Shown piece after piece: positions 28,049-64,000 of a stretch of 64,000 nt of DNA. A program made the translations under genes and the position numbers. The stretch is from Schmidtea nova (lineage: Eukaryota). The stretch lies in the NCBI GenBank assembly GCA_044892505.1, contig CM097884.1, positions 7,564,001-7,628,000 of the forward strand, given 5' to 3'. The notes under the pieces were generated by a model that saw nothing but the letters and a program-made list of their open reading frames with translations, was not told the origin of the DNA and made no database searches. How positions within the stretch are numbered: position 1 is the first letter of the stretch; each line of letters opens with the position of its first letter.

Positions 28049-29797
28049 ATGGAAGCTGCACAAATTAAAACCCAACGCAAACCACAAAGTTACCAATCGA
28101 ATGTTGCAATTAAAAAGAACTCAAATCGTACGAAAGAATTCAGTGAGCACAAGAGGCGAATGAGACAATCAATCACCCCAGTTATTGCTACAAGCACAAA
28201 GATAGATATTTCTACCATTGATATTCCAGAGCGCATTAAAGGCAGCTATTTCATTAAGCGAAAGAAGATTAAATCTACTGTGAAACCTGATGATATATTT
28301 GCAGCTAAGAAAGAACAATTTGTTTTATTGAATATATTTTTTTTCTTCTTATTAAATTTATTTGCAGATACTAAAAATGGTGTCAGAAACCCTGATATAA
28401 TATATGAGGCAAACAGAATAGTTTTTATTACTAGTGGATTTTCTCAAAACTCAGCAACATCAACATCAACCGGGTTTACATTTGGACAATTACCGAGCGC
28501 AAAAATCGATTCACTTGAACCATTCAATCAAAATTGGATATCAACGGAATCAACACCGATTATGTTTTTGGTAAAAAAGAAATCAGATGCAATTTTTTCT
28601 TCAATATCAACACTGTCGTCATCGATGTCGTTAAAGTTCATACAGATATCTTCTATAAAGTTGCATATTGTCGTACCGAGCTCAATTTCGTCAAATTCAA
28701 CGATATTTGGTCTAATATCTAAAAGTGACTCAAAACAAGTAGCTGCAAACGTCATTACGAAATTCGCAAACACCAGCATCACTTTTGAACAATTGAGACG
28801 AGATGATTCGGGTTCTTATAAATGCGCTGTTAAAGGAACTACTGAGACCGGGTCAACAATGGAATTGGAAGCCTCGACATTTCAACCAGCCTCAGAAACT
28901 ACATTCTGTCAATCAGTAGAAACAGGAAAGCGTGAAAGTGTCAATTACAACAGGCAATCAGTTGAATACTCAGTCAACATTGTCTCATTACCTGAACAAT
29001 ATGTCATTGGTCAAAGATTTACCATGCAATGTAAAGTTTATCCTCAATTCAAAACTGCTAGTTACTCTTGTCCGTTGCGTAAACTCGACCTCGGCTCCTA
29101 TTCCTGTGTGATTCACAGTTCCACTAACGGAGCGGCGTTGCAGCTGGAAGCGTCTTTTTCTCAAAACAATTGCAACAGCTATTTGGGATTATCGGGCGAG
29201 CGGTATTTTCTATGTATTATTTATAATATTAAATTACATAATATATTATATTTATTTATATTATTTTTATTCATACTAAATTTTAAAATTATTTTTATTA
29301 TCTTTCTCAAAATTCACAAATACCTTGTCCAGTTTTTTGACACATTCAATACAAGTCACGCTCACAACCCCACTCAATCCACCATGTCCAACAACGATTC
29401 TATCGCCACTTTCCCAACATATGTCCTCACGCGTTTCAACCACAAAACACGCCAAATCCCCATTTTCACGGATCTGCGCACTGATATCGCCACCTCCCAT
29501 CTGATTAATAGGAATAAATTTTACATGACGTACAACGGTTTCCCAGTTTCCTCACTCACCGACATTCCACCTAATGCTATAATAGAAATTCATTGCCGCG
29601 TTTTAGGAGGCGTCCGACCCACTATAGAACCGCCTTATTCATCCACTTCACGCCCAATTTTGTTCTTTTTGGATCCCGACGGCACACCCTCGTCGTGGTT
29701 CCGCATTTTCGAATCGCGCACGTCTTCCTTTCCAAAATCACGCCCCGATTACCTACTCGACAGCCTACCATCTGAATTGATAGCCGAGCTTGCCTGA
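28049..29797 (+). CDS. LTR-initiated ORF: basic N-terminus, hydrophobic segment, S/T(FG)-rich region, Ig-like segments, hydrophobic segment, ubiquitin-like domain, Gag N-terminus
   Basis: Continuous open frame. DSGSYKC and DLGSYSC are Ig F-strand motifs. RVLGG is followed by DPDGTPSSWFRIFE (Gag). A frameshift at about 29795 separates it from the rest of Gag. Confidence 0.65.
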   Translation: MEAAQIKTQRKPQSYQSNVAIKKNSNRTKEFSEHKRRMRQSITPVIATSTKIDISTIDIPERIKGSYFIKRKKIKSTVKPDDIFAAKKEQFVLLNIFFFFLLNLFADTKNGVRNPDIIYEANRIVFITSGFSQNSATSTSTGFTFGQLPSAKIDSLEPFNQNWISTESTPIMFLVKKKSDAIFSSISTLSSSMSLKFIQISSIKLHIVVPSSISSNSTIFGLISKSDSKQVAANVITKFANTSITFEQLRRDDSGSYKCAVKGTTETGSTMELEASTFQPASETTFCQSVETGKRESVNYNRQSVEYSVNIVSLPEQYVIGQRFTMQCKVYPQFKTASYSCPLRKLDLGSYSCVIHSSTNGAALQLEASFSQNNCNSYLGLSGERYFLCIIYNIKLHNILYLFILFLFILNFKIIFIIFLKIHKYLVQFFDTFNTSHAHNPTQSTMSNNDSIATFPTYVLTRFNHKTRQIPIFTDLRTDIATSHLINRNKFYMTYNGFPVSSLTDIPPNAIIEIHCRVLGGVRPTIEPPYSSTSRPILFFLDPDGTPSSWFRIFESRTSSFPKSRPDYLLDSLPSELIAELA

Positions 29798-30513
29798 AAT
29801 TAGCCGACGCGCTTTACGCAGACAACCCGTATTATGATCTCAAATCCCTGATAGTGTCAAAATACACCTCATCACAAACTCAAGATCTCACAAAGCTTTT
29901 GGCACCACAAAATTACGCAGGACAACAACCAAGCCTGTTCCTAGCACAGATTGCCCGCTCCAACGACATCGCCATTCCAGATCTGTCCAAAAACATTCAA
30001 CTCTTAAAACACCAATTTCTCTCCGCTCTTCCATATAATCTACAAACCTCCCTCGCATTGGTAGACTCTGAAGACCCGTACCATCTTGCTAAAATAGCTG
30101 ATCGCATTTATGCACTCCAACCCCATAAACCGCGCGCTGATAATTACACACCACCACCGCCACCCTCCATTGTCAACGCAACACATTCACCCGAAAACCA
30201 CTACACCTGCAACGTCACAAAGTATTCCAACTATACACCTCCATTACAGCAAGCACAACGCCATAATCATCCACCTGTTACACGCACACAGAACATACAA
30301 CCCAGTAGCAGCGCAGCACTAATTTGTTTTTTCCACAGCCGATTCAAAAAACATGCACAGAAATGCTGCATTGGTGCCGCTTCCGAATTCCACAATCCTC
30401 ATAACCCAGTCATTCCAATCTGTATCTACCACCATCTATTCAAGAACGAAGACAAATCGTGCATAGATGGATGCACTTGGCACACGACCAGTTACCATCA
30501 TGCAAAAAACTAA
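29384..30513 (+). CDS. gag: UBL-Gag (one frameshift at about 29795)
   Basis: CCACCATG start, 76-aa UBL ending at 29611, NPYYDLK..., then duplicated CxxHxxFxxxxxxC motifs, ending HAKN*. Confidence 0.75.
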
Positions 30514-30558
30514 CTGAGTCATCGGATATTCCTGGACGCTCCGATGACTTCCTGCCAG
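30504..30558 (+). promoter_or_regulatory. -1 ribosomal frameshift signal between gag and pol
   Basis: A AAA AAC heptamer, 6-nt spacer, 10-bp stem AGTCATCGGA/TCCGATGACT. Loop CTGG can pair with downstream CCAG. Pol is in the -1 frame. Confidence 0.85.
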
Positions 30559-33500
30559 TGAACACTCTTCCTCACAGCAAACCACGTCCAGCGTACACAA
30601 TATCAACTCCTCCAGCAAACACCATTTCAGGCATGACCACTACTCACCACGCACGACAATTTCTTCGCACAGCTCAACTAACTACACCACTCAGCACAAC
30701 CCGCACAACACAAACACAAACGCCACCTACAACAAAAACACCATTCTCAGAACCGCCTGCATCATTACCAACATCAACGTGCATAAAACCACTAAAAGCG
30801 CCACTATCAATGCCACAAACACCACTCACCCCTCCTCACTACAAAATTCCCACAGACAACACGAGCATCCTACCACCACCGTTACCGACCACCACCTCCA
30901 CCATTAACAGAGCAACCCTGGCCACATCAATTTTAACCAGAACTCCCGGAAATTTCACCATCACCGCCGAACTGTTAGAAGCACACGGACAACCCAAACA
31001 ACGCACAATAACAGTCCTTATAGACACAGGTTCGTCATATTCAATTCTACCCACCACCTTCACTGCAGACACACCCTGCTCATCCTCCGCCATAGCCGCA
31101 AACGGTACGCACATAATGCTCTCCGGTACGAAAACAATCGAATTTCGCCTTCCCGGCCTTTCTAAACGTTTCACGCACTCATTTTACATTGCCGACACAA
31201 CATTCCCGATTCTAGGTCTCGATTTCTTAACTACCGAAGAAGTGAACATCGACTGTAAAAATAGAAAACTGTATCAACTCCCTCATCCAGTTTCCGCGAT
31301 AGTGTCGCCAAAAACAACAATCACTTTAACAACAGACAACGTAGAATCAGTCATCGCCACAAATTTCCCGAACCTCCTCACCAAGTCTACCACACACGTA
31401 CCCAGCAAATAATCCGTCCATTTCATCACCACTGTTCCGTGCACACCACAAAGCGCTCGTTCCAGGCCTCTGGCTATCAATAGACGACAGGCCGTCGAAC
31501 TAGAATTTTCCGAACTCAAAGACAAAGGCATCATTCGATGCACGTCCTCCCCATGGGCTTCCCCTATCCATGTAGTCACGAAAAAAGATGGCTCCTTCCG
31601 CCCTTGTGGTGATTTTCGAGCGTTGAACAGCGTAACGATTCATGACGCCTACCCTATGCCTCTCATTAAGGACCTATTTTCACGTTTTTCGGGGAATACA
31701 GTCTTTTCAACGATCGACCTCGCCAAAGCATTTCACCAGTTCCCTGTAAATCCAGATGACGTTCCAAAAACAGCTGTAACTACCCCTTTCGGCAATTTCG
31801 GATACTTGTTCATGCCATTCGGCCTTAGGAATGCCGCACAAACACTCCAACGCTTCATGGACATCACTTTCAGACATCTCAGCCACACCTTCGTCTATCT
31901 AGACGATATCATTGTCGCTTCTACTGACGAATCCTCACACGCAAGAGACTTAATACAGGTTTTTGAAGTCCTCGACAAAAATAACCTTCAGATTAGCGTT
32001 GAAAAATGTCAATTCTTCAAGTCGCGCGTCCGTTTTCTAGGACACATACTGTCTGCATACGGATGTGAACCATTCCCAGAAAGGCTAGACATTATCCGGT
32101 CATTTCCCAAACCGTCCACGGTCACAGAGCTTCGCAGCTTTCTCGGAACTGTAAACTTCTGCCACAGATTTATCCCAAACTCGTCCCGCATTACCGCACC
32201 ACTGTCAGCACTCAATCACGGCCCCAAAAAGGCTATAATAAAATGGTCCGACGAAACGGATCAGGCCTTCATCAACGTAAAAAACGCATTGACTAATATC
32301 TCAACGCTGTATTACCCACATAACGACCTGCCATTCACTCTAACCACCGACGCCTCGGACATAGCAGCTGGGGCTGTTCTCCATCAGATTTAAGACAACG
32401 TTTCCCGTCCCATCGAATTCTTTTCCCGTAAATTCTCATTAGCAGAAACAAGGTACAGTGCCTTCGACAGAGAGCTACTAGCCATCGTGCTGGCCGTGAA
32501 ACATTTCCGACACTTCCTAGAGGGTAGACATTTCACAATATTCACTGACCACAAACCTCTCCTACACTGCCTCACCATGAAAGATCCATCGAATAGGGTA
32601 TTTCGTCAACTAGCATTTCTATCATCGTTTGATTTCGTGATCAAACACATAGCAGGTGGAGACAACGTCATTGCAGACTGCCTTTCGCGCGCGATCATAA
32701 CCTCAATATCTTTTTCTCCTATCTTCTCGCTAGATATCCTTTCATCCACGCCTCCTTCTGAGAAAGATATTTCCAGGTTCAAAGACTCCCACAAACTCAT
32801 CGACGGTGTGCATTACGACACATCTTTCAACAATACGCTACGCCCCATTCTACACGAGTCACTTCGCAAAGAAGCGTTTTTCGCAGTTCACAACCTACAC
32901 CATCCCGGCATCAAATCGACATACGCACTACTACGCCAGAAAGTACGCCAGAAAGGTACGCCCTATTCAAAGACGTCAAACGATGGGTAAGTGAGTGTCA
33001 AGGGTGCCAGCAGCATAAAGTTCACAAACATGTCAAACCACCGCTCACCCCTTTCCCTACAGGCTCCCGCTTCGATATTTTGCACATTGATCTCGTGGGA
33101 CCACTTCCGGCGGACAACGGATTCTCCTTCATCCTTACAATGATAGATCGTAAGACGCGCTGGTTCGAAGCAGTACCCATACCCAATATCACAGCACCCA
33201 CTGTTGCAGACTACTTAGTGTCTACCTGGTTTTCCCGTTACGGTATCCCTACAACAATCATTACAGACCAAGGGCGCCAATTCGAATCGGACTTATTTAA
33301 TTACCTGACAAACGCGCTAAGCATTAAACACATACGCACCTCTGCCTATCACCCACAGACCAACGGTCTCGTCGAACGTGCCCACCGCACTATCAAGACC
33401 TCACTTCGTATTCTCGCATCCTCCTCCGGATGGACAAAGTCTCTGCCGTTCGTTCTACTTGGATGGCACAACACACCCAATCGCTCAAGTGGAGTCTCCC

Positions 33501-34048
33501 CGGCACAATTACTGTTCGGCGCTAACACACGCATGCCATCAGAACTTATAGAAACAGACTCCGAATCGTCTCTCCAACAAATAAACCAGGCCCGCAGCCA
33601 CTTCCTAGCTCTAGACTCAAATCCGTCCTTCACATACTCTACCTCTTACAAACCCTACATGCCGCATACTCTTACCTCAACCTCACACGCCTGGTTAAAA
33701 TGCATTGACTCATCCAGTTTGAAGCCCCGGTATAAAGGACCATATCCGATTATCAAAATACACAAAAACACGGCCGAACTATACATAGATGGTACAACAC
33801 ACATCATAAACCTGAACCGCCTAAAACCGGCTCTTATATTAGCGGATCAGGACAACGAACTTCCACTACACCACCAGTCAGATGAAGATCTAACCGAAGA
33901 CCCCACATTTGACCCAGACCCACAGGCTCACCAACCCTTTCCAATTCCGCAGACCGAAACATTTCGCAACCCATTGTCACACAATCGCATCCGCCGTCCT
34001 CCACAGTACCTCTCAGACTACCATCTCGATTTCCACTCAGATCCTTGA
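30504..34048 (+). pseudogene. pol: pol (protease, RT, RNase H, integrase) with two in-frame TAA stops and one frameshift
   Basis: LIDTGSS, YLDDII, TTDAS, DRELLA, HIDLVGP, TDQGRQF, GLVER, YKGPY. Stops at 31410 and 32391, and a TACGCCAGAAAG duplication near 32935. Confidence 0.93.
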
Positions 34049-37000
34049 ATTCGTTTTTTGCCTTTCCCATACGCTCCGCGTACTTCGGCGGGGGCTATTG
34101 TAGTGCCTCCGTTATAATTATATGTTATTATATTATTTAATTAAATGTCATATTATTTATATATTAAAATCAATTATCAATTTATTTATATAAAAAAAAT
34201 CAATTAGTTTAAATCACAAAAAAATCGCACTTTTCACCTTATTCAAAAAACGACAAGCAAGAAGCAATTTACAAAAAATGGAAGCTGCACAAATTAAAAC
34301 CCAACGCAAACCACAAAGTTACCAATCGAATGTTGCAATTAAAAAGAACTCAAATCGTACGAAAGAATTCAGTGAGCACAAGAGGCGAATGAGACAATCA
34401 ATCACCCCAGTTATTGCTACAAGCACAAAGATAGATATTTCTACCATTGATATTCCAGAGCGCATTAAAGGCAGCTATTTCATTAAGCGAAAGAAGATTA
34501 AATCTACTGTGAAACCTGATGATATATTTGCAGCTAAGAAAGAACAATTTGTTTTATTGAATATATTTTTTTTCTTCTTATTAAATTTATTTGCAGATAC
34601 TAAACTGCATTTTTTTTAAAATTGAAATTAAATTTTGAATTGGAGAAAAAATTTTATAATCTGAAAAATATAATTATTAATTATTTAACAAACAAATTTT
34701 TATTACAATGTTTTTTTCATAATAATTACATTTGAAATTTCGATTGCACTATAAAACATTTCTAACGTGAATACATATTGCTATATTATAATAAATTAAT
34801 TAAACTAACACTTTTAAATCAAGATTCAAAAACTATTTTAATATTAAAACAATCTTTTTGTTATATATCAATAATATATAAACCCCCTCTCTTAAGAATC
34901 ATCGGTACACATAGTTTTATATTTCTTATGGAACTTATTAGATATCTTTTCAAAAGTGGTCTTGTTCATACGCATGTTTACGGTGATCCAATAATCCTTG
35001 AATCACTTGGTATCGTTTTTATTTAGTTGTAGTTTCTCTGGAGCGTTCTTCCATTTTTTCTTTTTGTAGATAAGTCCATTTATTAATGAATGCTTGAATA
35101 GAAAAAGGAACATATTATTTTTAATTGGAACTTTAATCATTTTCTTTAGTAACCAACCTCAAATCGCCAATTTGAATCTGTTGATTTTTTGCATGTTTTT
35201 AAAGACTTTATTTGAATATCCTTCATATAATATTTATCATGCTCTAAAAATAAATCATCATATGTGATATCAGCATCCAACTGTACTAATTCCCTCTTTC
35301 ATCACTGCCCATAAGCCTCTCTCTGAATTTGATTAGGATTTTGAACGTGATTCATTGTAAATATTTACATTACGCTTCTTTTGTGGATCCGAGTGCAATA
35401 ATTAGCATTGTTCACATTGTGGTAGTCTGGGCAGGGCTTCTGCGTTTTAACGTTTCTTTCCCATTCGGTATTTAATTTCCATGCTATAAACCTTAAAATT
35501 CCGCTTTCTAAATAAAAAACTGAAAATTCTTTGGAGAATCCCACTTTTAAAACTATTTTAATGTTTGATGATCAGTTCGAATGACAAATTTTCTACCTAA
35601 AAGATAATATATAAAACAAATTTATAGATAATCAAAAGTTCTTTTCGAGTTATAAAATGTTTGCGCTGGGCTGTAGTCATGGATTTTGAGCCGTATGCTA
35701 TAAGCTTTTCTTCTCCATTTTGAATATAAGAAAGAACTGCTCTGATACAGTCATTAGAAGCATTTGTATCCAAATTTAAACCACTACTATGGGCTGGTAA
35801 ATTCAGAATAAGAGTTTCTGTTAGAGCCTCTTTTAACAAATAAAACGCCTCTTCAACTTGTGTATTCATAGAAACCCGTTTTCTTTTCTCAACATATTTT
35901 ATAGGGGTTCCACTTTTTTACCATAATCTTTGATGAACCTTCAGTAATATGGACACATCCTAGCAAATGTTTGTAACTCCTGAATATTCGCTGCTATATT
36001 TATTTTTCTTATTGACAGAATTTGTCCGGATCTATTAAAATATCAGCACCACTAATAATATGACCCAAATACTTTACTTCTTTATTATAAAAGTGCATTT
36101 ATCAAGTGCCAACTTTAAACTTGCTTCCTTTATCCTAGATAAAACTTGATAGAGCTTTTAATTATGTTTTTTCTAACATTCATCCAAATATAAAAACATC
36201 TACTAGATAGATTGCACAAGACTTTTAGTTCTCATTTTGCAAAATAATTGTCATCGTGTTCTGAAATGCTGAGGGTGCTGCACATTACCCAAACGGCGTT
36301 ATCATGCATTCAAACTCCCCACATCTAGTACTAAATGTCGTTTTTTGTACAACATTTTCATTTAATGGTACTTGGTAATATTCACTAACCATATCTAAAG
36401 TTGTAAAATCTTTAGCATCCTCGATGGAGTCAAATAATTTTGAGCTGCTAGATATGGCAAATATTGGTCTAGTTGTTTTGGAACTTATTAGATATCTCTT
36501 CACATATAACTTTAAGCTTCTCTCATCAACAATTTCAGCCAGAATAAAATACTTCCGGCATCTATGAGACACACTGTCTTTGACACAATAAAGTAAAAGA
36601 AGCGTTTCCGGACCGTTTCAGCATCCATTTCAACACCAGGCTACAATAATGTGGTACAATTTATAGGATTATCAAAAATACCATCCTTTTACATATATCG
36701 TAACTTTATGTAAATAATTGAAAATATATAATTAATTGTTTCAAAATTTGGTTGACAGTTTAACACCTATTTTTAGTTGCAGCAATATATTAGCGTAACT
36801 TTGCATTTCAGTTCCATTTATACAGTTTATTGGTAATTTTGGTTTAGTTTCCATAATTTTCTGAAAAATCTTTTTGCTCACTACGTACGTATCTTCTCTA
36901 GTGTCGAACATAATGCGTGTATTAATTCCTCACATTTAATCATTAATACACTTGCTTTCGCACATTAAAGGTTTCTATAATGTAAGTCAAAAATTACCAA

Positions 37001-55799: not shown

Positions 55800-56853
55800 T
55801 GTTGAGGATACCTAAATTAGAAATAATATAATAAATAAACAAAATTACTTGGGGGAAAATTGTCATTGGGAATGACACGATTGATTGGAGCCTGGGAAAG
55901 AAAACGGAAATAAAAAAGGAATGAGAAATGAGAAGGGAAAACAAAAGAAAAGAAATCAGACAAGCAAAACGAAATAGAGGTCAGCACTAATTAACTAGTG
56001 CAAATAGGAAGAAATTCTAAAGTTAGGAAAAACAAAAACAACAACAATAATTTTATCTCGACAACCGGTCAGAGATAATGTGGACAAAAATCAAACAAGC
56101 CGGAGCGGCAAAAAGGAAAAAAACAGAGGTTATCTTGACAGCTGTCAAAGATAACTCCGTTGCTGAGAAGATGAATGGGAAATCATGTTGGAAAAAATGG
56201 ATTAACAGCTGAGAATTTTAAGTGCTACAAAGTGAAGAGGTATAAAAGGAGGACGCACTTCAGAAGATGACACGACATTGCATACAGAAGTTATTGGAGA
56301 GAACATTGTGGACAGAATATTTGAGAGACAATGTTTGAGACAGAACATTTGAGAGAACATATTTTGCGGAGAATATTTGTGTTTAAAGACTGAAGTCAGA
56401 GGATAACAGGAGAAATTTGAGGCAGAAAAACGTCCTGAGAAAGGTAAAGAAGAGTCAAAAGGAGAATCCAACAATTGAAACCAGAAACTAAGGGATAAGC
56501 AGCAGGAGCTTATTCAAGAGTTTGAGAAAATAAAACTAGTAAAATTCAGTGGGTAAATCCAAGTCAAACTAAGAAAACAACCAGCTAAGTTACCAATTGT
56601 TATACTCCCCAGTAGTGAGTGATTTCGAATATCGATTATACACTAGTGCTATTCTTCACTATTGTGTCGTAATAAGCACTGTATAATCAGCTGTAGTTTT
56701 GATATTGGTCAGTTCATTGTAAATTGAAATTATTTGTGATATTCAATAAAATTTCCAGCTGTCAGTTGTTATTGTAGGTGAATTAGGAGCACGTTTGGAG
56801 TCAGGAATATAATTTGTTAATTATAAAGTCACCAACAACCCAATAACTCAACA
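55800..56853 (+). mobile_element. Solo LTR inserted in the minisatellite
   Basis: TGTTGAG...CTCAACA inverted ends, 4-bp TSD ATAA, TATAAAA near 56241, AATAAA near 56745. Confidence 0.8.
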
Positions 56854-56857
56854 ATAA

Positions 56858-57720
56858 CTAAACAAAGACATTTCAATGCCAAAAAACTCAACAAAGACAT
56901 TTCAATGCCAAAATAATTAAACAAACATATTTCAATACCAAAAACTTAACAAAGACATTTCAAAGCCAAATATCTTAACAAAGACATTTCGATGCCAAAA
57001 CACCTAAACAAAGACATATCAATGCCAACAAACTAAACAAAGACATTTCAATGATAAAACACCTAAACAAAAACATTTCAATGCCAAAAAACTTAACAAA
57101 GACAATTCAATGGCAAATAAACTAAACAAAGACATTTCAATGCCAAAATAATTAAACAAAGACATTTCAATGCCAAAACACCTAAACAAAACATTTCAAT
57201 GCCAAAAAAATTAAACAAAGACATTTCAATGCCAAAAAAACTTAACAAAGACATTTCAATGCGAAATACCTTAACAAAGACATTTTGATGCCAAAACACC
57301 TCAACAAAACATTTCAATGCCAAAAAACTTAACAAAGACATTTCAATGCCAAAGAAATTAAACAAAGACATTTCAATGCCAAAAAAACTTAACAAAGACA
57401 TTTCAATACGAAATACCTTAACAAAGATATTTCAATGTCAAAATAATTTTAATACATTTCAATGCTAAAACAATTAAACAAAGGCTTTTTATTGCCAAAT
57501 TCCTTAACAAAGACATTTCATTGCCAAAAACCTTAACAAATACATTTCATTGCCACAAACCTTAACAAAGACATTTCATTTTCAATTTCCTTAAAAAAAC
57601 TATTCAATGCCAAAACACATAAACAAGACAGTTCAATGTCAAAGCACCTAAATAAAGACGTTTCGATGTTAAAATCCTTATCAAAGACATTTCAATGCCA
57701 ATATCCTTAACAAAGACTGC
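56858..57720 (+). repeat. About 30-bp minisatellite (AACAAAGACATTTCAATGCCAAAA...)
   Basis: Visible tandem array. Confidence 0.95.
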
Positions 57721-58130: not shown

Positions 58131-60906
58131 ATAGTAGCCTTAATTATTTTTTAATATTTTATAATGATTTTATTGGATGAAAAAATTTATTTTAATTTTT
58201 TTGTGCTAATTCAATGTTGATGGACGGTTTGTATTTTTTTATGAAAAAAGTCTCGGAAGCTAATCTTTGTAATGAATTTTTGAATCCCTCTTGTAGAATA
58301 TGGCATTTTGTTTCTTCTATAGATGGAGTTGTTTTATGTACTTTCTCCCAGTATTCGTAATAATTACTTGTTTTAATTTTAATGTGTTCATTAAGTCGGG
58401 TGCGAAAAGTTCTATGTGTTTCTCCTATGTAAGTAGCGTCACATTTTTGGCAAGAAAGTTTATATACTATATTTTTGGAAAAGCAAAAGCATCGGGTTGT
58501 GGAACGACAAAGACATTTATGTTTGGAGATGTTGGAAATTGGTGGCTTTCGGAGTTGTGATTTTAACGTTGCGGAGGTTATGAACGTTGGACGGATGTGG
58601 ATAGGCAAATCTGTTTGATTAAAAATGTTGGTGATTTTGTTGGCTGTAGTGTCATTTAGGAAAGGTAATCTTAGATATGTTGTGTGTTTGTTATTGTTAT
58701 TGTGTTTCTGGCGTTTTCTATTGTTGCGTTTATTGTGGTATGGTTCGTTAAGGAAGTATTTCTTTACAAATTCTTCAGGGTATCCATTTTGGAGGAATCG
58801 TGTTTTGAAGTTTTCTAATGTTTCTTGTATTTTGTTTGCGTCTGAACAGTTTCTTATGGCTCTTTTTCTTTCTCCTATTAGTAATGCGATTTTGCGTTGA
58901 AGTGGAACGTGGCTTTTCCATGGGAGGATATGACCGCTATGTAAACTTTTAGAATATAGCTCGGTGTTTGCATTTAGTGTATTTTGGCCTTTTGTGAAAC
59001 TTACTATGTTATCTAAAAACGGTATTTTACCTTCTGTGTTCGGTGTTTCAAAAGTGAATTGTATGTTGGTGTTAGTAGAATTTGCGTGTGATAGGATTTG
59101 ATTGAGAGGGATTGTGGAGACTATGAAGATGTCGTCGATGTATCGTTTCCAGAAAAGTATTTTGTCCCCAAAAAAAAGATATGTTCTTAGATTCTATAAA
59201 GTTCATGTAGAAGATGGCTAAGATGGGAGAAAGGTTATTACCCATGGCTAATCCATGAATTTGTTTGAATGGGTTTTCTTTAATTATGACAGTATCTGAA
59301 TTTATTGCTTATTTTAGAAGTTCTATAAAGTCTTGTTTAGTAAAGTCTGTGAGGTCAGTATTGGCTTTATGAGTTTCAAAGAAAGAAGCTGCGATGTCGA
59401 AAATATTATTCTCTCCGTGAAGAGGAATAGATCCGTAAAGATTGGAAACGTCAAGAGATCCCCAGAAGTACTGTTGTCCTGCGTTTAACGGAAGAGACGT
59501 ATTTGTAATTTCGGAGACGAATTCAGTTGTGTTTTCGTCTCCGAAATTACAAATACGTCTCTTCCGTTAAACGCAGGACCACAGTACTTCTGGGGATCTC
59601 TTGATGTTTCCAATCTTTACGGATCTATTCCTCTTCACGGAGAGAATAATATTTTCGACATCGCAGCTTCTTTCTTTGAAACTCATAAAGCCAATACTGA
59701 CCTCGCAGACTTAACTAAACAAGACTTTATAGAACTTCTAAAATTAGCAATAAATTCAGATACTGTCATAATTAAAGAAAAACCATTCAAACAAATTCAT
59801 GGATTAGCCATGGGTAATAACCTTTCTCCCATCTAAGCCATCTTCTACATAAACTTTATAGAATCTAAGATCATATCTTTCTTTGGGGACAAAATACTTT
59901 TCTGGAAACGATACATCGACGACATCTTCATAGTCTCCACAATCCCTCTCAATCAAATCCTACTAACACCAACATACAATTCACTTTTGAAACACCGAAC
60001 ACAGAAGGTAAAATACCGTTTTAGATACCATGGTAAGTTTCACAAAAGACCAAAATACACTAAATGCAAACACTGAGCTATATTCTAAAAGTTTACATAG
60101 TGGTCATATCCTCCCATGTAAAAGCCACGTTCCATTTCAAGGCAAAATCGCAATACTAATAGGAGAAAGAAAAAGAGCCATAAGAAACTGTTCAGACGCA
60201 AACAAAATACAAGAAACATTAGAAAACTTCAAAACACGATTCCTCCAAAATGGATACCCTGAAGACTTTGTAAAGAAATACTTCCTTAACGAACCATACC
60301 ACAATAAACGCAACAATAGAAAACGCCAGAAACACAATAACAATAACAAACACACAACATATATAAGATTACCTTTCCTAAATGACACTACAGCCAACAA
60401 AATCACCAACATTTTTAATCAAACAGATTTGCCTATCCACATCCGTCCAACGTTAATAACCTCCGCACCCTTAAAATCACAACTCCGAAAACCACCAATT
60501 TCCAACATCTCCAAACATAAATGTCTTTGCCGTTCCACAAACCGATGCTTTTGCTTTTTCAAAAATATAGTATATAAACTTTCTTGTCAAAAATGTGACG
60601 CTACTTACATAGGAGAAACACATAGAACATTTTGCACCCGACTTAATGAACACACTAAAAACAAAACCAGTAATTATTACGAACAATGTGAGAAAGTACA
60701 TAAAACAACTCCATCTATAGAAGAAACAAAATGCCAGATTCTACAAGAGGGATTCAAAAATTCATTACAAAGATTAGCTTCCGAGACTTTTTACATAAAA
60801 AATACAAACCGTCCATCAACATTCAATTCGCACAAAAAAATTAAAATTAATTTTTTCATCCAATAAAATCATTATAAAATATTAAAAAAATAATTAAGGT
60901 TACTAT
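58131..60906. mobile_element. Palindrome of two diverging 5'-truncated Penelope-like copies
   Basis: Arms 58131-59521 (-) and 59534-60906 (+) with a 12-nt spacer. GLAMGNNLSP, WKRYIDDIF, VYKLSCQKCDATYIGET. Confidence 0.92.
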
Positions 60907-61109
60907 AGTAGGTAGATGTGTGGAGTCAAACACAAAGAAATGAGTCATAATGCGTGGGCGGAAAATTTTAAACAAAGAACTTTTTTTCGGAACCCCCCCC
61001 GGGGGGGAAGGGGGGGGGGTCAAATTTTTTTTTTTTTTTTTTTTTCGCGCCAAATTTAAATTTGAAAATTTTTTTTTTGAAAATTTTTTCGCGCCAAATT
61101 TAAATTTGA

Positions 61110-61470
61110 AAATTTTTTAACATAAAATATTTTAACACAAATTTTTTTTTTTTTAACACAAAATTTTTTAACACAAATTTTTTTTTTTAACACAAAATTT
61201 TTTAACACAAAATTTTTTAACACAAATTTTTTAACATAAAATTTTTTAACATAAAATTTTTTAACACAAAATTTTTAAACACAAAATTTTTTAACACAAA
61301 ATTTTTTAACACAAAATTTTTTAACACAAAATTTTTTAACACAAAATTTTTTTAACATAAAATTTTTTAACATAAAATTTTTTAACACAAAATTTTTAAA
61401 CACAAATTTTTTCAACACAAAATTTTTTAACACAAAATTTTTTAACACAAAATTTTTTAACACAAATTTT
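61110..61470 (+). repeat. About 15-bp tandem repeat (AACACAAAATTTTTT)
   Basis: Visible array. Confidence 0.95.
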
Positions 61471-62351
61471 TTTTTCTTACAAATTTTTTTTTTTCAAAAT
61501 TTTTTTTTTTTTAAACAAAGAACTTTTTTATGCGTGGGCGTAAAAAATTTAAACAAAGAACTTTTTTCAATGCGTGGGCGTAAAAAATTTTTAAACAAAG
61601 AACTTTTTCGAGACCCCCCCCCGGGGGGGGCTAATTTTTTTTTGTTTTTTTTTTTTCAAAAATTATTTTTTCGCGCCAAATTTATAATTGTAAATTATTT
61701 TTTTTTTTTTTAACATAAATTATTTTAACAGAAATATGAGTCATAGAAAAGTTTGCAACACGCGTGCAACTTAAACAAAGACAATGCAATACACGTGCAA
61801 CATGAACAAAGACATTGAAAATAAAATTTATTTATAAATATATCGTTGTGTACGTGTACAAAATTTAGTTTCAAAATTATTTACATCTGAATTATTACTC
61901 GGAATATTATTCATAGGAATATTATTCATTGTAATATTATTCATCGGAATACTAGTATTTTTCGGAATATTATTCTTTGGAATATTTGACATCTTCTCCA
62001 ACCGTATGGATGCCGATAATATCATTATAATTATTAATATAAATAAACTTATATAATGTAATACAATGGCTGTATTTCATTTTCAACTGTTTGATTTTGG
62101 TATCTGTTCGTCTGTGTGTGCCTTTTGATTTTCTATTCGCATCTGTATGCGCTTAATTTTGAAACCTTATTTTGCTCGCGTCTGTGTGCGCGATTTTGTC
62201 TGGGTAATTTTTTAGATTGTTGTTGATTGAGTTTTTTATTGATTTTTAGCTTTAGAGGAATTTATTGTTAGATTGGTTGTTTTATTATTCGAGATTTTGA
62301 GGGAATTTAGATTTTTTTGATTCAAGAATTGAAATTAATTTAAATACAACT

Positions 62352-64000
62352 ATGAATGAAAGCGAAAACGAAGTAGAAAACGATGAAGTTAATAATACTG
62401 ATTTATCTGACGACGATTTAACAGAAAATGATGAAAAAGAAGATGATGATATGAATACAGATGATAATGAAAATAATCCAGCAAAAGAAGACACAATGCT
62501 TTCTGAAAACAAAGATAACAATTCTATAGAAGCTGATGTGGAAATCTCAGAAATTAACTCCCATATCAGATATCGCTTTCGCAATGATTCAAATGAACTC
62601 TTCAGATGTCGCTTTCGCAATGATTCAAATGAACTCTTCAGATGTCGCTTTCGCAATGATTCAAATGAACTCTTCAGATGTCGCTTTCGCAATGATTCAA
62701 ATGAACTCTTCAGATGTCGCTTTCGCAATGATTCAAATGAACTCTTCAGATGTCGCTTTCGCAATGATTCAAATGAACTCTTCAGATGTCGCTTTCGCAA
62801 TGATTCAAATGAACTCTTCAGACTGAACCTTCTTACACTGATTAATAATAAAATCCTTGGAATAGTGTTACTTTTTATCAAAAACATTAATTTGATTATA
62901 GCTCGAACATTTGGGCCTTTTGGTCAAATTTTCTGTGATTTTGGATCAAATCATGTAGTTATGAAAACAAATAAAGATTCTCACTCGGACGTTCAATCAA
63001 TGATTTACCATGGTAGCAGAGCGTGGTTCCCACCGGGGGGCCACGCACACTCTGGAAAGCCGTTAGTCGACCTTTTTATTAAACATTCTTTTATGCCTTT
63101 TGTAAAAATATTAAAATGGGTTAAATTTGTAATTGGAGTATGGACCAACATTCCCTCCCAGGCGCGTTTTGAATGGAAAGTGAAAGTTGGAATGGCTTGG
63201 CCACCGGATATTGTGAAAGACGGCTGCTATGGGCCCCAGCATTCTTTTAAATTCCGGGAAATGTTGCAACAAGATAAAATTTTGAAAGGCTTAGAACCTT
63301 TTGTAGGAATAAGGGGAGATAAAAGTAATCATAAAAAGTTCTATAATCAAATTGTTAAAAATATTAAATTGGGTAATCATGAAGACAGGGTAAATATGAA
63401 TAGAATAGGGAGATTATTGAGTTTTTATTCAATAGCAAGTGGTGATGAAAGGACAAGTCTAAAGGATAATAGTTCGCGAGTGAAAGAAAAGGAAACGGAG
63501 TCCACTTTACATTTTGTTTTGCGATTGAGACGTGGAATACAGATTTTTGTTAAGACTCTAACAGGTAAAACCATAACATTGGAAGTTGAACCGAGGGACT
63601 CTATTGAGAAAATAAAAGCCAGGATCCAAGAGAAAGAGGTAATCACGCCTGATCAACAGAGATTGATATTTGCAGGTAAACAATTAGGAGGCGAAAGAAT
63701 CCTGTCAGATTACCACATTCAAAAGGGGTCTACTATTCATCTGGCACTGAGATTGTGTGGAAGGAATGATGAAGAGGAGGAATTAGAGGAAGGATTGAGA
63801 AAGAAGAGGAGTGTCAAATATAGATTGACGAAATTAAGAAACAGGTGGATGAATGATATGTTGGCAGAAGATGCAACACATGTCCTTGATGAATATCAGG
63901 AAGCTATGGAAAGTGCCATAGAGAGTTTTGAAAGAATGGTGGATATTAGTAAAAGATTAGGAAGGTCAGATACAACAACGGGGCTAGAAGCGGACTTACA
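62352..64000 (+). CDS. Intronless mosaic ORF, open to the window end (at least 549 codons): acidic N-terminus, 7x [11 protein letters not shown](C), UBA1-like fragment, ubiquitin domain
   Basis: Manual translation shows no stop from ATG 62352. [17 protein letters not shown] near 62895, [13 protein letters not shown], then [19 protein letters not shown]...[11 protein letters not shown]...[12 protein letters not shown] (63537-63764). Not in the supplied ORF track, probably because it lacks a stop. Confidence 0.85.
62566..62822 (+). repeat. Seven near-perfect tandem copies of a 36-bp unit
   Basis: TCGCTTTCGCAATGATTCAAATGAACTCTTCAGATG repeated with no spacers. Confidence 0.97.

Follow-up and report, generated by a model that had tools for sequence, protein, structure and literature searches.

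The glyco-Gag of MLV (gPr80) is made with an 88-residue leader that starts at a CUG codon, and its Gag part takes the secretory path (PMC3042739). In cytopathogenic BVDV, an RNA virus, sporadic insertions of true host ubiquitin into the polyprotein act as a processing signal, where cellular hydrolases cut and an authentic N-terminus results (PMC8310069). The copia-type element Ty1 brings its RNA to the ER co-translationally, through SRP-dependent translation of Gag, nucleating particle assembly; the Gag itself passes into the lumen before it returns (PMC3945221). Among env-less Ty3/gypsy elements, the MDG1 group encodes a membrane protein upstream of gag, the separate and small FAST-like sORF2 (PMC11952523). 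The CsRn1 clade is described with a CX2HX9CX3C Gag motif, the order PR-RT-RH-IN and a tRNA-Trp PBS (TGGTGAG/CCCCGT/A; PMC2582038). Finally, the planarian gypsy elements Burro and GYPSM1 exceed 30 kb and have captured host domains; their polyprotein has Gag at the N-terminus and includes a Ubi2/SUMO-like motif, and the region that separates gag from pol holds env and the additional domains (PMC6431247).

We analysed a stretch of 64,000 nucleotides from Schmidtea nova (the window) and searched the genome, whose 283 contigs add up to 1.25 Gb. Inside the window is a Ty3/gypsy LTR retrotransposon of 6.7 kb in which LTRs, TSD, PBS and PPT are all present; its stranded features lie on the plus strand. 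The unstranded TSD CTGCA (27866-27870, second copy 34605-34609) encloses a 5' LTR at 27871-28375 and a PPT-like tract with the 3' LTR at 34087-34604 (the LTR itself 34099-34604). The two LTRs are near-identical and end in TG...AA instead of TG...CA. The 5' LTR contains a TATA-like run, a start codon and the first 109 codons of a leader. The PBS (28378-28388), which we take to be of tRNA-Leu type, is read through in frame. A UBL (ubiquitin-fold domain) and a Gag core (29612-30513) follow, and pol (30471-34048) lies in an overlapping frame with its domains in the Ty3/gypsy order PR-RT-RH-IN. The window copy is damaged: its Gag frame breaks near 29794, a break other copies do not have, and its pol has stops or breaks near 31410, 32391 and 32950. 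A form of about 3.9 kb without pol (L015 and others) retains both LTRs, leader and gag, and several elements stand in tandem arrays with shared LTRs (L045/L046, L099, L173, L175).

In the literature searched, with Repbase and subscription papers outside its reach, nothing that we found describes a leader-UBL-Gag precursor that starts in the LTR. The element shares its Gag motif and pol order with the CsRn1 clade; unlike there, the motif is doubled and the PBS reads TGGTGTCAGAA, and the CsRn1 passages mention neither leader nor UBL (PMC2582038). As with sORF2, a putative membrane protein is encoded ahead of gag in an env-less Ty3/gypsy element. Unlike sORF2, which is a separate small frame with an N-myristoylation start and one TM, the putative membrane part is here fused to Gag as a 445-residue leader that starts MEAA, with no myristoylation start (PMC11952523). 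The element resembles Burro and GYPSM1 as a planarian gypsy element with captured host domains and a ubiquitin-type motif, and differs from them in its small size and in carrying its extras ahead of Gag (PMC6431247).

The earlier note on this DNA had described a frame that stays open from 28049 across the LTR end and the PBS into the UBL, with 28049 as the first ATG downstream of a TATA box, and both observations stand: the frame is open from 27917 or 28049 to 29797, and the TATA-like run lies near 27959. When the 445 codons were resampled block-wise with local composition kept, a mean of 22.7 stops appeared and none of 2000 trials stayed open. ATG 28049 sits inside the 5' LTR, and the second in-frame ATG, at 29384 (CCACCATG), is Gag's own Met. 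In the window's family, here called C, the former is present in 52 of 55 copies and the latter in 55 of 56. The in-frame ATG at 27917 was rejected as a start, as it is not conserved among copies.

The idea that captured host fragments make up part of the leader is borne out by two intron-less pieces. Leader codons 1-92 (28049-28326) consist of three blocks that are 85-94% identical to the single full-length host RPL6 gene (L059). The piece begins at the host start codon, lacks a 45-nt intron and has an internal deletion of about 140 nt; the basic segment seen earlier is, by Pfam and PDB matches, host RPL6. Further on, 28775-29173 corresponds to the two final repeats of a secreted tandem-Ig gene of the host (L085/L086) with the intron missing, that is, a spliced 3' end that comprises the C-terminal half of Ig1 and an Ig2 with a 16-residue internal deletion. 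Because host introns are absent from both pieces, we infer from the sequences that they were captured at the RNA level. The host Ig gene has a signal-like start and no anchor at its end; L085, L086 and L087 are all secreted tandem-Ig genes built of near-identical exon-intron repeats of 372 or 375 nt.

The RPL6 pieces borne by LTRs (28049-28326 and 34277-34555 in the window) are an annotation trap. At least 149 Pfam Ribosomal_L6e matches come from LTR copies beside the one full-length gene (150 scored among 1207 candidates). A genome search with Pfam Ribosomal_L6e_N gave zero matches, and its controls were silent as well.

Between the RPL6 and Ig pieces lies an S/T-rich insert (28390-28770), common to the predecessor family G (L196-L199), with two N-glycosylation sequons in it or just beyond. 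For its donor, an antisense frame of 82 residues and a sense piece gave no matches, and all that the genome yielded were element-like copies. The nucleoporin-like impression left by its FG-like motifs is unsupported, because these searches gave no host match.

Hydrophobic segment 1 (28316-28372), repeated with the RPL6 start in the 3' LTR, is a predicted internal signal anchor at the position of the signal-peptide-like starts of sister families, with eight basic residues before it and three after. Over residues 90-108 its KD is 1.66 in the window copy, not above shuffles (P 0.34), and 2.25-2.67 in all seven other copies scanned; its variants within family C differ in sequence and retain hydrophobicity. 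Hydrophobic segment 2 (29201-29332), a predicted membrane span, reaches KD 2.92 over residues 402-420. When shuffled, it stays open in 2.7% of cases, and 2.0% of the open ones are equally hydrophobic. Of the two hydrophobic stretches proposed earlier, the second is strong, and the first is weak in the window copy and stronger in the seven others scanned. The membrane calls come from a hydropathy scale. The GT and AG ends of 29203-29332 are conserved, also in families A and B, and this piece may be an intron, as the earlier note considered. Segment 2 is foreign to the host Ig gene; reading it as that gene's anchor or intron was rejected, since the gene stops before it.

The two Ig-like pieces are of Ig origin as proposed, and both are partial by Pfam coverage and deletions. 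A complete Ig with its core Trp and both Cys is missing from the window copy, and the model of the deleted Ig2 has a pLDDT of 35-48, where that of the complete Ig1 in an older copy (L089) reaches 65-83. Functional Ig domains in the window copy are thus unsupported, and the Ig pieces are vestigial in family C, the youngest. In a small sub-lineage of C (eight element matches; L099-L103, L200) Ig2 is complete and agrees with the host gene at every position along about 105 nt, unlike in older and most current copies, which carry the Ig2 deletion. By sequence identity, this sub-lineage is likely a recent re-capture from host mRNA.

The UBL (29384-29611) starts at Gag's Met and ends RVLGG. In line with the UBL and GG of the earlier note, a ubiquitin fold is predicted ahead of Gag, with an RxxGG end. 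Residues 12-71 model as a beta-grasp (pLDDT 64-83, from a four-sequence alignment). With this model, Foldseek ranks ISG15 first, then SUMO and ubiquitin (probability 1.00, E 3.6e-4); Pfam gave no match to the UBL. Among motif reads, the RxxGG end occurs in 53 of 63 for C, 9 of 13 for D and 15 of 17 for E, and 21 of 37 A/B reads end exactly in HLRILGG. It also occurs in two of three outside relatives, the exception ending RARSG, and so persists while the rest of the UBL diverges. The Gag core carries two CHCC-type motifs and matches DUF7041 weakly. In L023, with two CX2HX9CX3C motifs, the Gag core contains no Met.

How firmly is the leader held in family C? We compared 36 copies chosen by DNA similarity and called variants shared when found in two or more of them. 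Tandem duplicates were left out, as was any copy whose alignment showed over 25 gaps. Copies with frames of at least 800 residues (23 of 55) were excluded from the statistics; a second batch had been picked for long frames. Shared leader variants comprise 32 synonymous, 50 nonsynonymous and no stop changes where 3.5 stops were expected (P 0.029, from copies that are not phylogenetically independent), and private ones 32, 124 and 6 (pN/pS 1.45). The pN/pS of shared variants is 0.58 in the leader and 0.28 in Gag; when 54 copies were used and a variant had to occur in at least three of them, the leader gave 0.75. Shared indels are triplet to non-triplet 3:1 in the leader versus 1:16 upstream of the ATG (Fisher P 0.012), and the comparison of shared with private leader indels gives P 0.13. 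Against families A and B, with L090, L091 and L104 left out, dN/dS is 0.62 in the leader, on few changes, and 0.14 in the Gag core.

The comparison of copies asked for earlier, for a preserved frame and triplet indels, thus comes out in favour for shared variants, and many individual copies are nevertheless broken. Of 39 copies, 14 have an open leader and 28 an open UBL-Gag; the leader breaks largely at a T-run near 28345, where slippage is frequent and in 2 copies affects both LTRs. On these sequences amino-acid constraint on the leader is weak (0.58-0.75 within C). Taken together, shared variants and breakage indicate that the frame is kept and its residues only loosely, and make a leaderless Gag plausible in C, probably from the conserved ATG 29384. 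Neutral captured DNA, the alternative of the earlier note, is disfavoured.

Older families of elements, about 80% identical, were uncovered through a search with an outside Ig relative, and both the preserved frame and the membrane-protein layout that the earlier note had suspected extend to them. Their LTRs are unlike those of C, yet finish with a Met and a hydrophobic core in the frame of the PBS. Of 75 copies examined, 68 had a located PBS, and 47 of these show such an ending (the copies are not phylogenetically independent). The signal-like starts belong to several unrelated sequence types, for example MNILIKYILCIGLLIF and MFIPYFVLLTFVLGVSA. The distance from PBS to Ig is in frame in most older copies and has two lengths, 126 nt apart. 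Beyond the PBS, families A and B have one complete and then one deleted Ig, the anchor that C also has, and the UBL. L089 has a natural signal-Ig-anchor frame of 344 residues, and in its model the complete Ig and an anchor helix fold and the deleted Ig does not. Family D has one Ig, also complete, and a different anchor region, and family F has a low-complexity, Q/M/G/N-rich ectodomain that is not an Ig. There are thus two unrelated anchor regions, one in A, B and C and one in D and F. In family G the LTR frame is reminiscent of a secreted protein's 5' end (KD 2.32).

In the Gag tree, families A-D and F form a group (100/100) within which C joins some A/B copies (98/99); therefore the signal-ectodomain-anchor layout is older than the RPL6 LTR. 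After the ectodomain, D and F show two or three hydrophobic peaks, and G has one extra weak peak, which means that Gag may not be cytosolic in every family and that the topology may vary. One mosaic copy (L177) joins a B-type signal, a C-type truncated Ig, the A/B/C anchor and a D-type UBL; judged from this sequence, modules recombine between families.

Outside this clade, the independent, related family E is young and abundant (L170-L175, L179-L189). Its LTR encodes part of a nuclear-receptor zinc finger, in frame with UBL-Gag. Translation would start at an ATG in the LTR and read the PBS in a different phase, and the frame runs into UBL-Gag in all 17 fetched copies, which had been chosen for long frames; the leader is weakly hydrophobic (KD 1.6-1.8), with a Met just before the GG. 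Among six metagenome loci, the single one that contains an LTR (L195) repeats the plan with yet another LTR-started leader in frame with UBL-Gag. In a library of 5.8 billion, none of 6264 candidates was a leader-plus-Gag relative of 455-1451 residues, which is weak evidence.

On balance, we lean towards a membrane-targeted Gag precursor whose UBL-Gag part would remain cytosolic and be cut after the GG by a host deubiquitinase-type protease. Ribosomes would start within the LTR, at the captured host start codon, and the precursor, in which Gag is the C-terminal part of one frame that crosses the PBS, is likely translated. A signal peptide (A, B, D, F, G), or in C an internal signal anchor behind the basic RPL6 stub, would target the RNA to the ER. 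The second hydrophobic segment would act as a stop-transfer and leave UBL-Gag on the cytosolic side, where a host deubiquitinase-type hydrolase likely frees the capsid. The element would likely benefit by having its genomic RNA and Gag brought co-translationally to a membrane where particles assemble. As the UBL would define the capsid's N-terminus anew, the leader would need only to stay open and hydrophobic, and because only these two properties would be required, its content could turn over by capture of host mRNA. Our best reading of the families is accordingly that frame and hydrophobicity are kept and the cargo is swapped.

Could the leader be a translated spacer without meaning, which ferries ribosomes from the LTR start past upstream ATGs to Gag and is removed by the UBL, its hydrophobicity a by-product of AT-rich DNA? 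Such DNA does encode hydrophobic residues by default, which counts against the membrane reading. There are 15 further ATGs between 28049 and 29384, and the loose constraint on leader residues, the weakly hydrophobic, nuclear-receptor-derived leader of family E and a segment 1 no better than shuffles in the window copy fit as well. We nevertheless consider this unlikely: several unrelated LTR types each place a Met and a hydrophobic core right before the PBS, one of them resembling the captured 5' end of a secreted protein, two unrelated anchor regions recur, and segment 1 stays hydrophobic in C while its sequence changes. It also seems very improbable that the leader of the window's family is simply a decaying capture with an inherited open frame, Gag being made from ATG 29384 on an RNA spliced or trans-spliced through the AG at 29332. 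That ATG is almost always kept, in strong context, and 36 of the listed A/B reads retain the acceptor AG; moreover, the leader is broken in 22 of 36 copies, and two copies each carry the same break in both of their LTRs. Against this stand the missing shared stops and the triplet-biased shared indels in C, the retention of ATG 28049, and an RPL6 capture that was itself joined in frame. In addition, splicing could not make Gag in most A/B copies, as they have no Gag Met (an in-frame ATG between anchor and GG is found in only 6 of 42).

A surface role, in which the Ig ectodomain is displayed outside with Gag inside and particles bud and pass between cells as an env stand-in, appears quite improbable. 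The complete Ig of A, B and D and the sub-lineage of C with its apparently re-captured Ig2 speak for it, and env-less elements can spread by means of a small membrane protein (PMC11952523). However, neither Ig domain is intact in the window's lineage or, five exceptions apart, in the C loci checked, the ectodomain of family F is low-complexity, and the host Ig donor is secreted and has no anchor. Nor did searches of Pfam, PDB and 1.84 billion proteins give any match to a fusion glycoprotein, which leaves the env-likeness raised earlier without support. Extending the precursor reading to a whole env-less Ty3/gypsy clade is possible, if doubtful: the capsid would be made as a membrane precursor of signal, swappable host-derived ectodomain, anchor, UBL and Gag, the UBL would serve as a host-cleaved adaptor for trying out captured mRNA pieces, and the Ig versions might be an env-independent route for budding and spread from cell to cell.

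Set beside the described systems, the membrane-targeted precursor resembles MLV glyco-Gag in that an upstream in-frame start extends Gag with an ER-entry signal, here a predicted one, and a second start, here probably ATG 29384, gives ordinary Gag (PMC3042739). The analogy drawn earlier is good for these two in-frame starts only, and only within family C, where 52 of 55 copies have the first and 55 of 56 the second; in A and B the second is mostly absent. Glyco-Gag is gammaretroviral, with a single signal and a Gag glycosylated along the secretory path. Here, by contrast, the leader is host-derived and has 445 residues instead of 88, its ATG lies in the LTR, it has two hydrophobic segments, Gag is predicted to be cytosolic in a topology that is itself a prediction, and a UBL intervenes as linker (PMC3042739). 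In older families, moreover, the leader is apparently the sole route to Gag. As in BVDV, a host-derived ubiquitin-type unit is a candidate processing signal of a polyprotein, and unlike there it is a diverged UBL, fixed ahead of Gag across a retrotransposon clade, with putative cleavage (PMC8310069). As in Ty1, the RNA of an LTR retrotransposon would reach the ER during translation; the element differs from Ty1, for which the abstract describes no separate membrane leader or UBL (PMC3945221).

If the precursor reading is right, it would constitute a new way to express and place Gag, by a start codon and targeting signal in the LTR, a membrane tether and release through a UBL. The families form a dated series within one genome, along which leader content swaps and frame, hydrophobicity and GG persist; therefore one could study directly how an intracellular element comes to use membranes, and by what mechanism host mRNA is captured. 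Each LTR copy also exposes a promoter-like run, a host start codon and a hydrophobic segment to host DNA.

The window contains further repeats. A second gypsy-like element lies on the minus strand at 49038-53418, with direct repeats at its ends. Two inverted copies of one transposase frame, presumably mariner-like, are found at 6937-7527 and 41598-42251. Frames of reverse-transcriptase or GIY-YIG-like type, which we assume to be Penelope-like, lie inside long inverted repeats at 22442-24246 and 58147-60889. Tandem arrays occupy 56806-57703 (units of 29/30 nt), 61021-61497 (15 nt) and 62530-62858 (36 nt).
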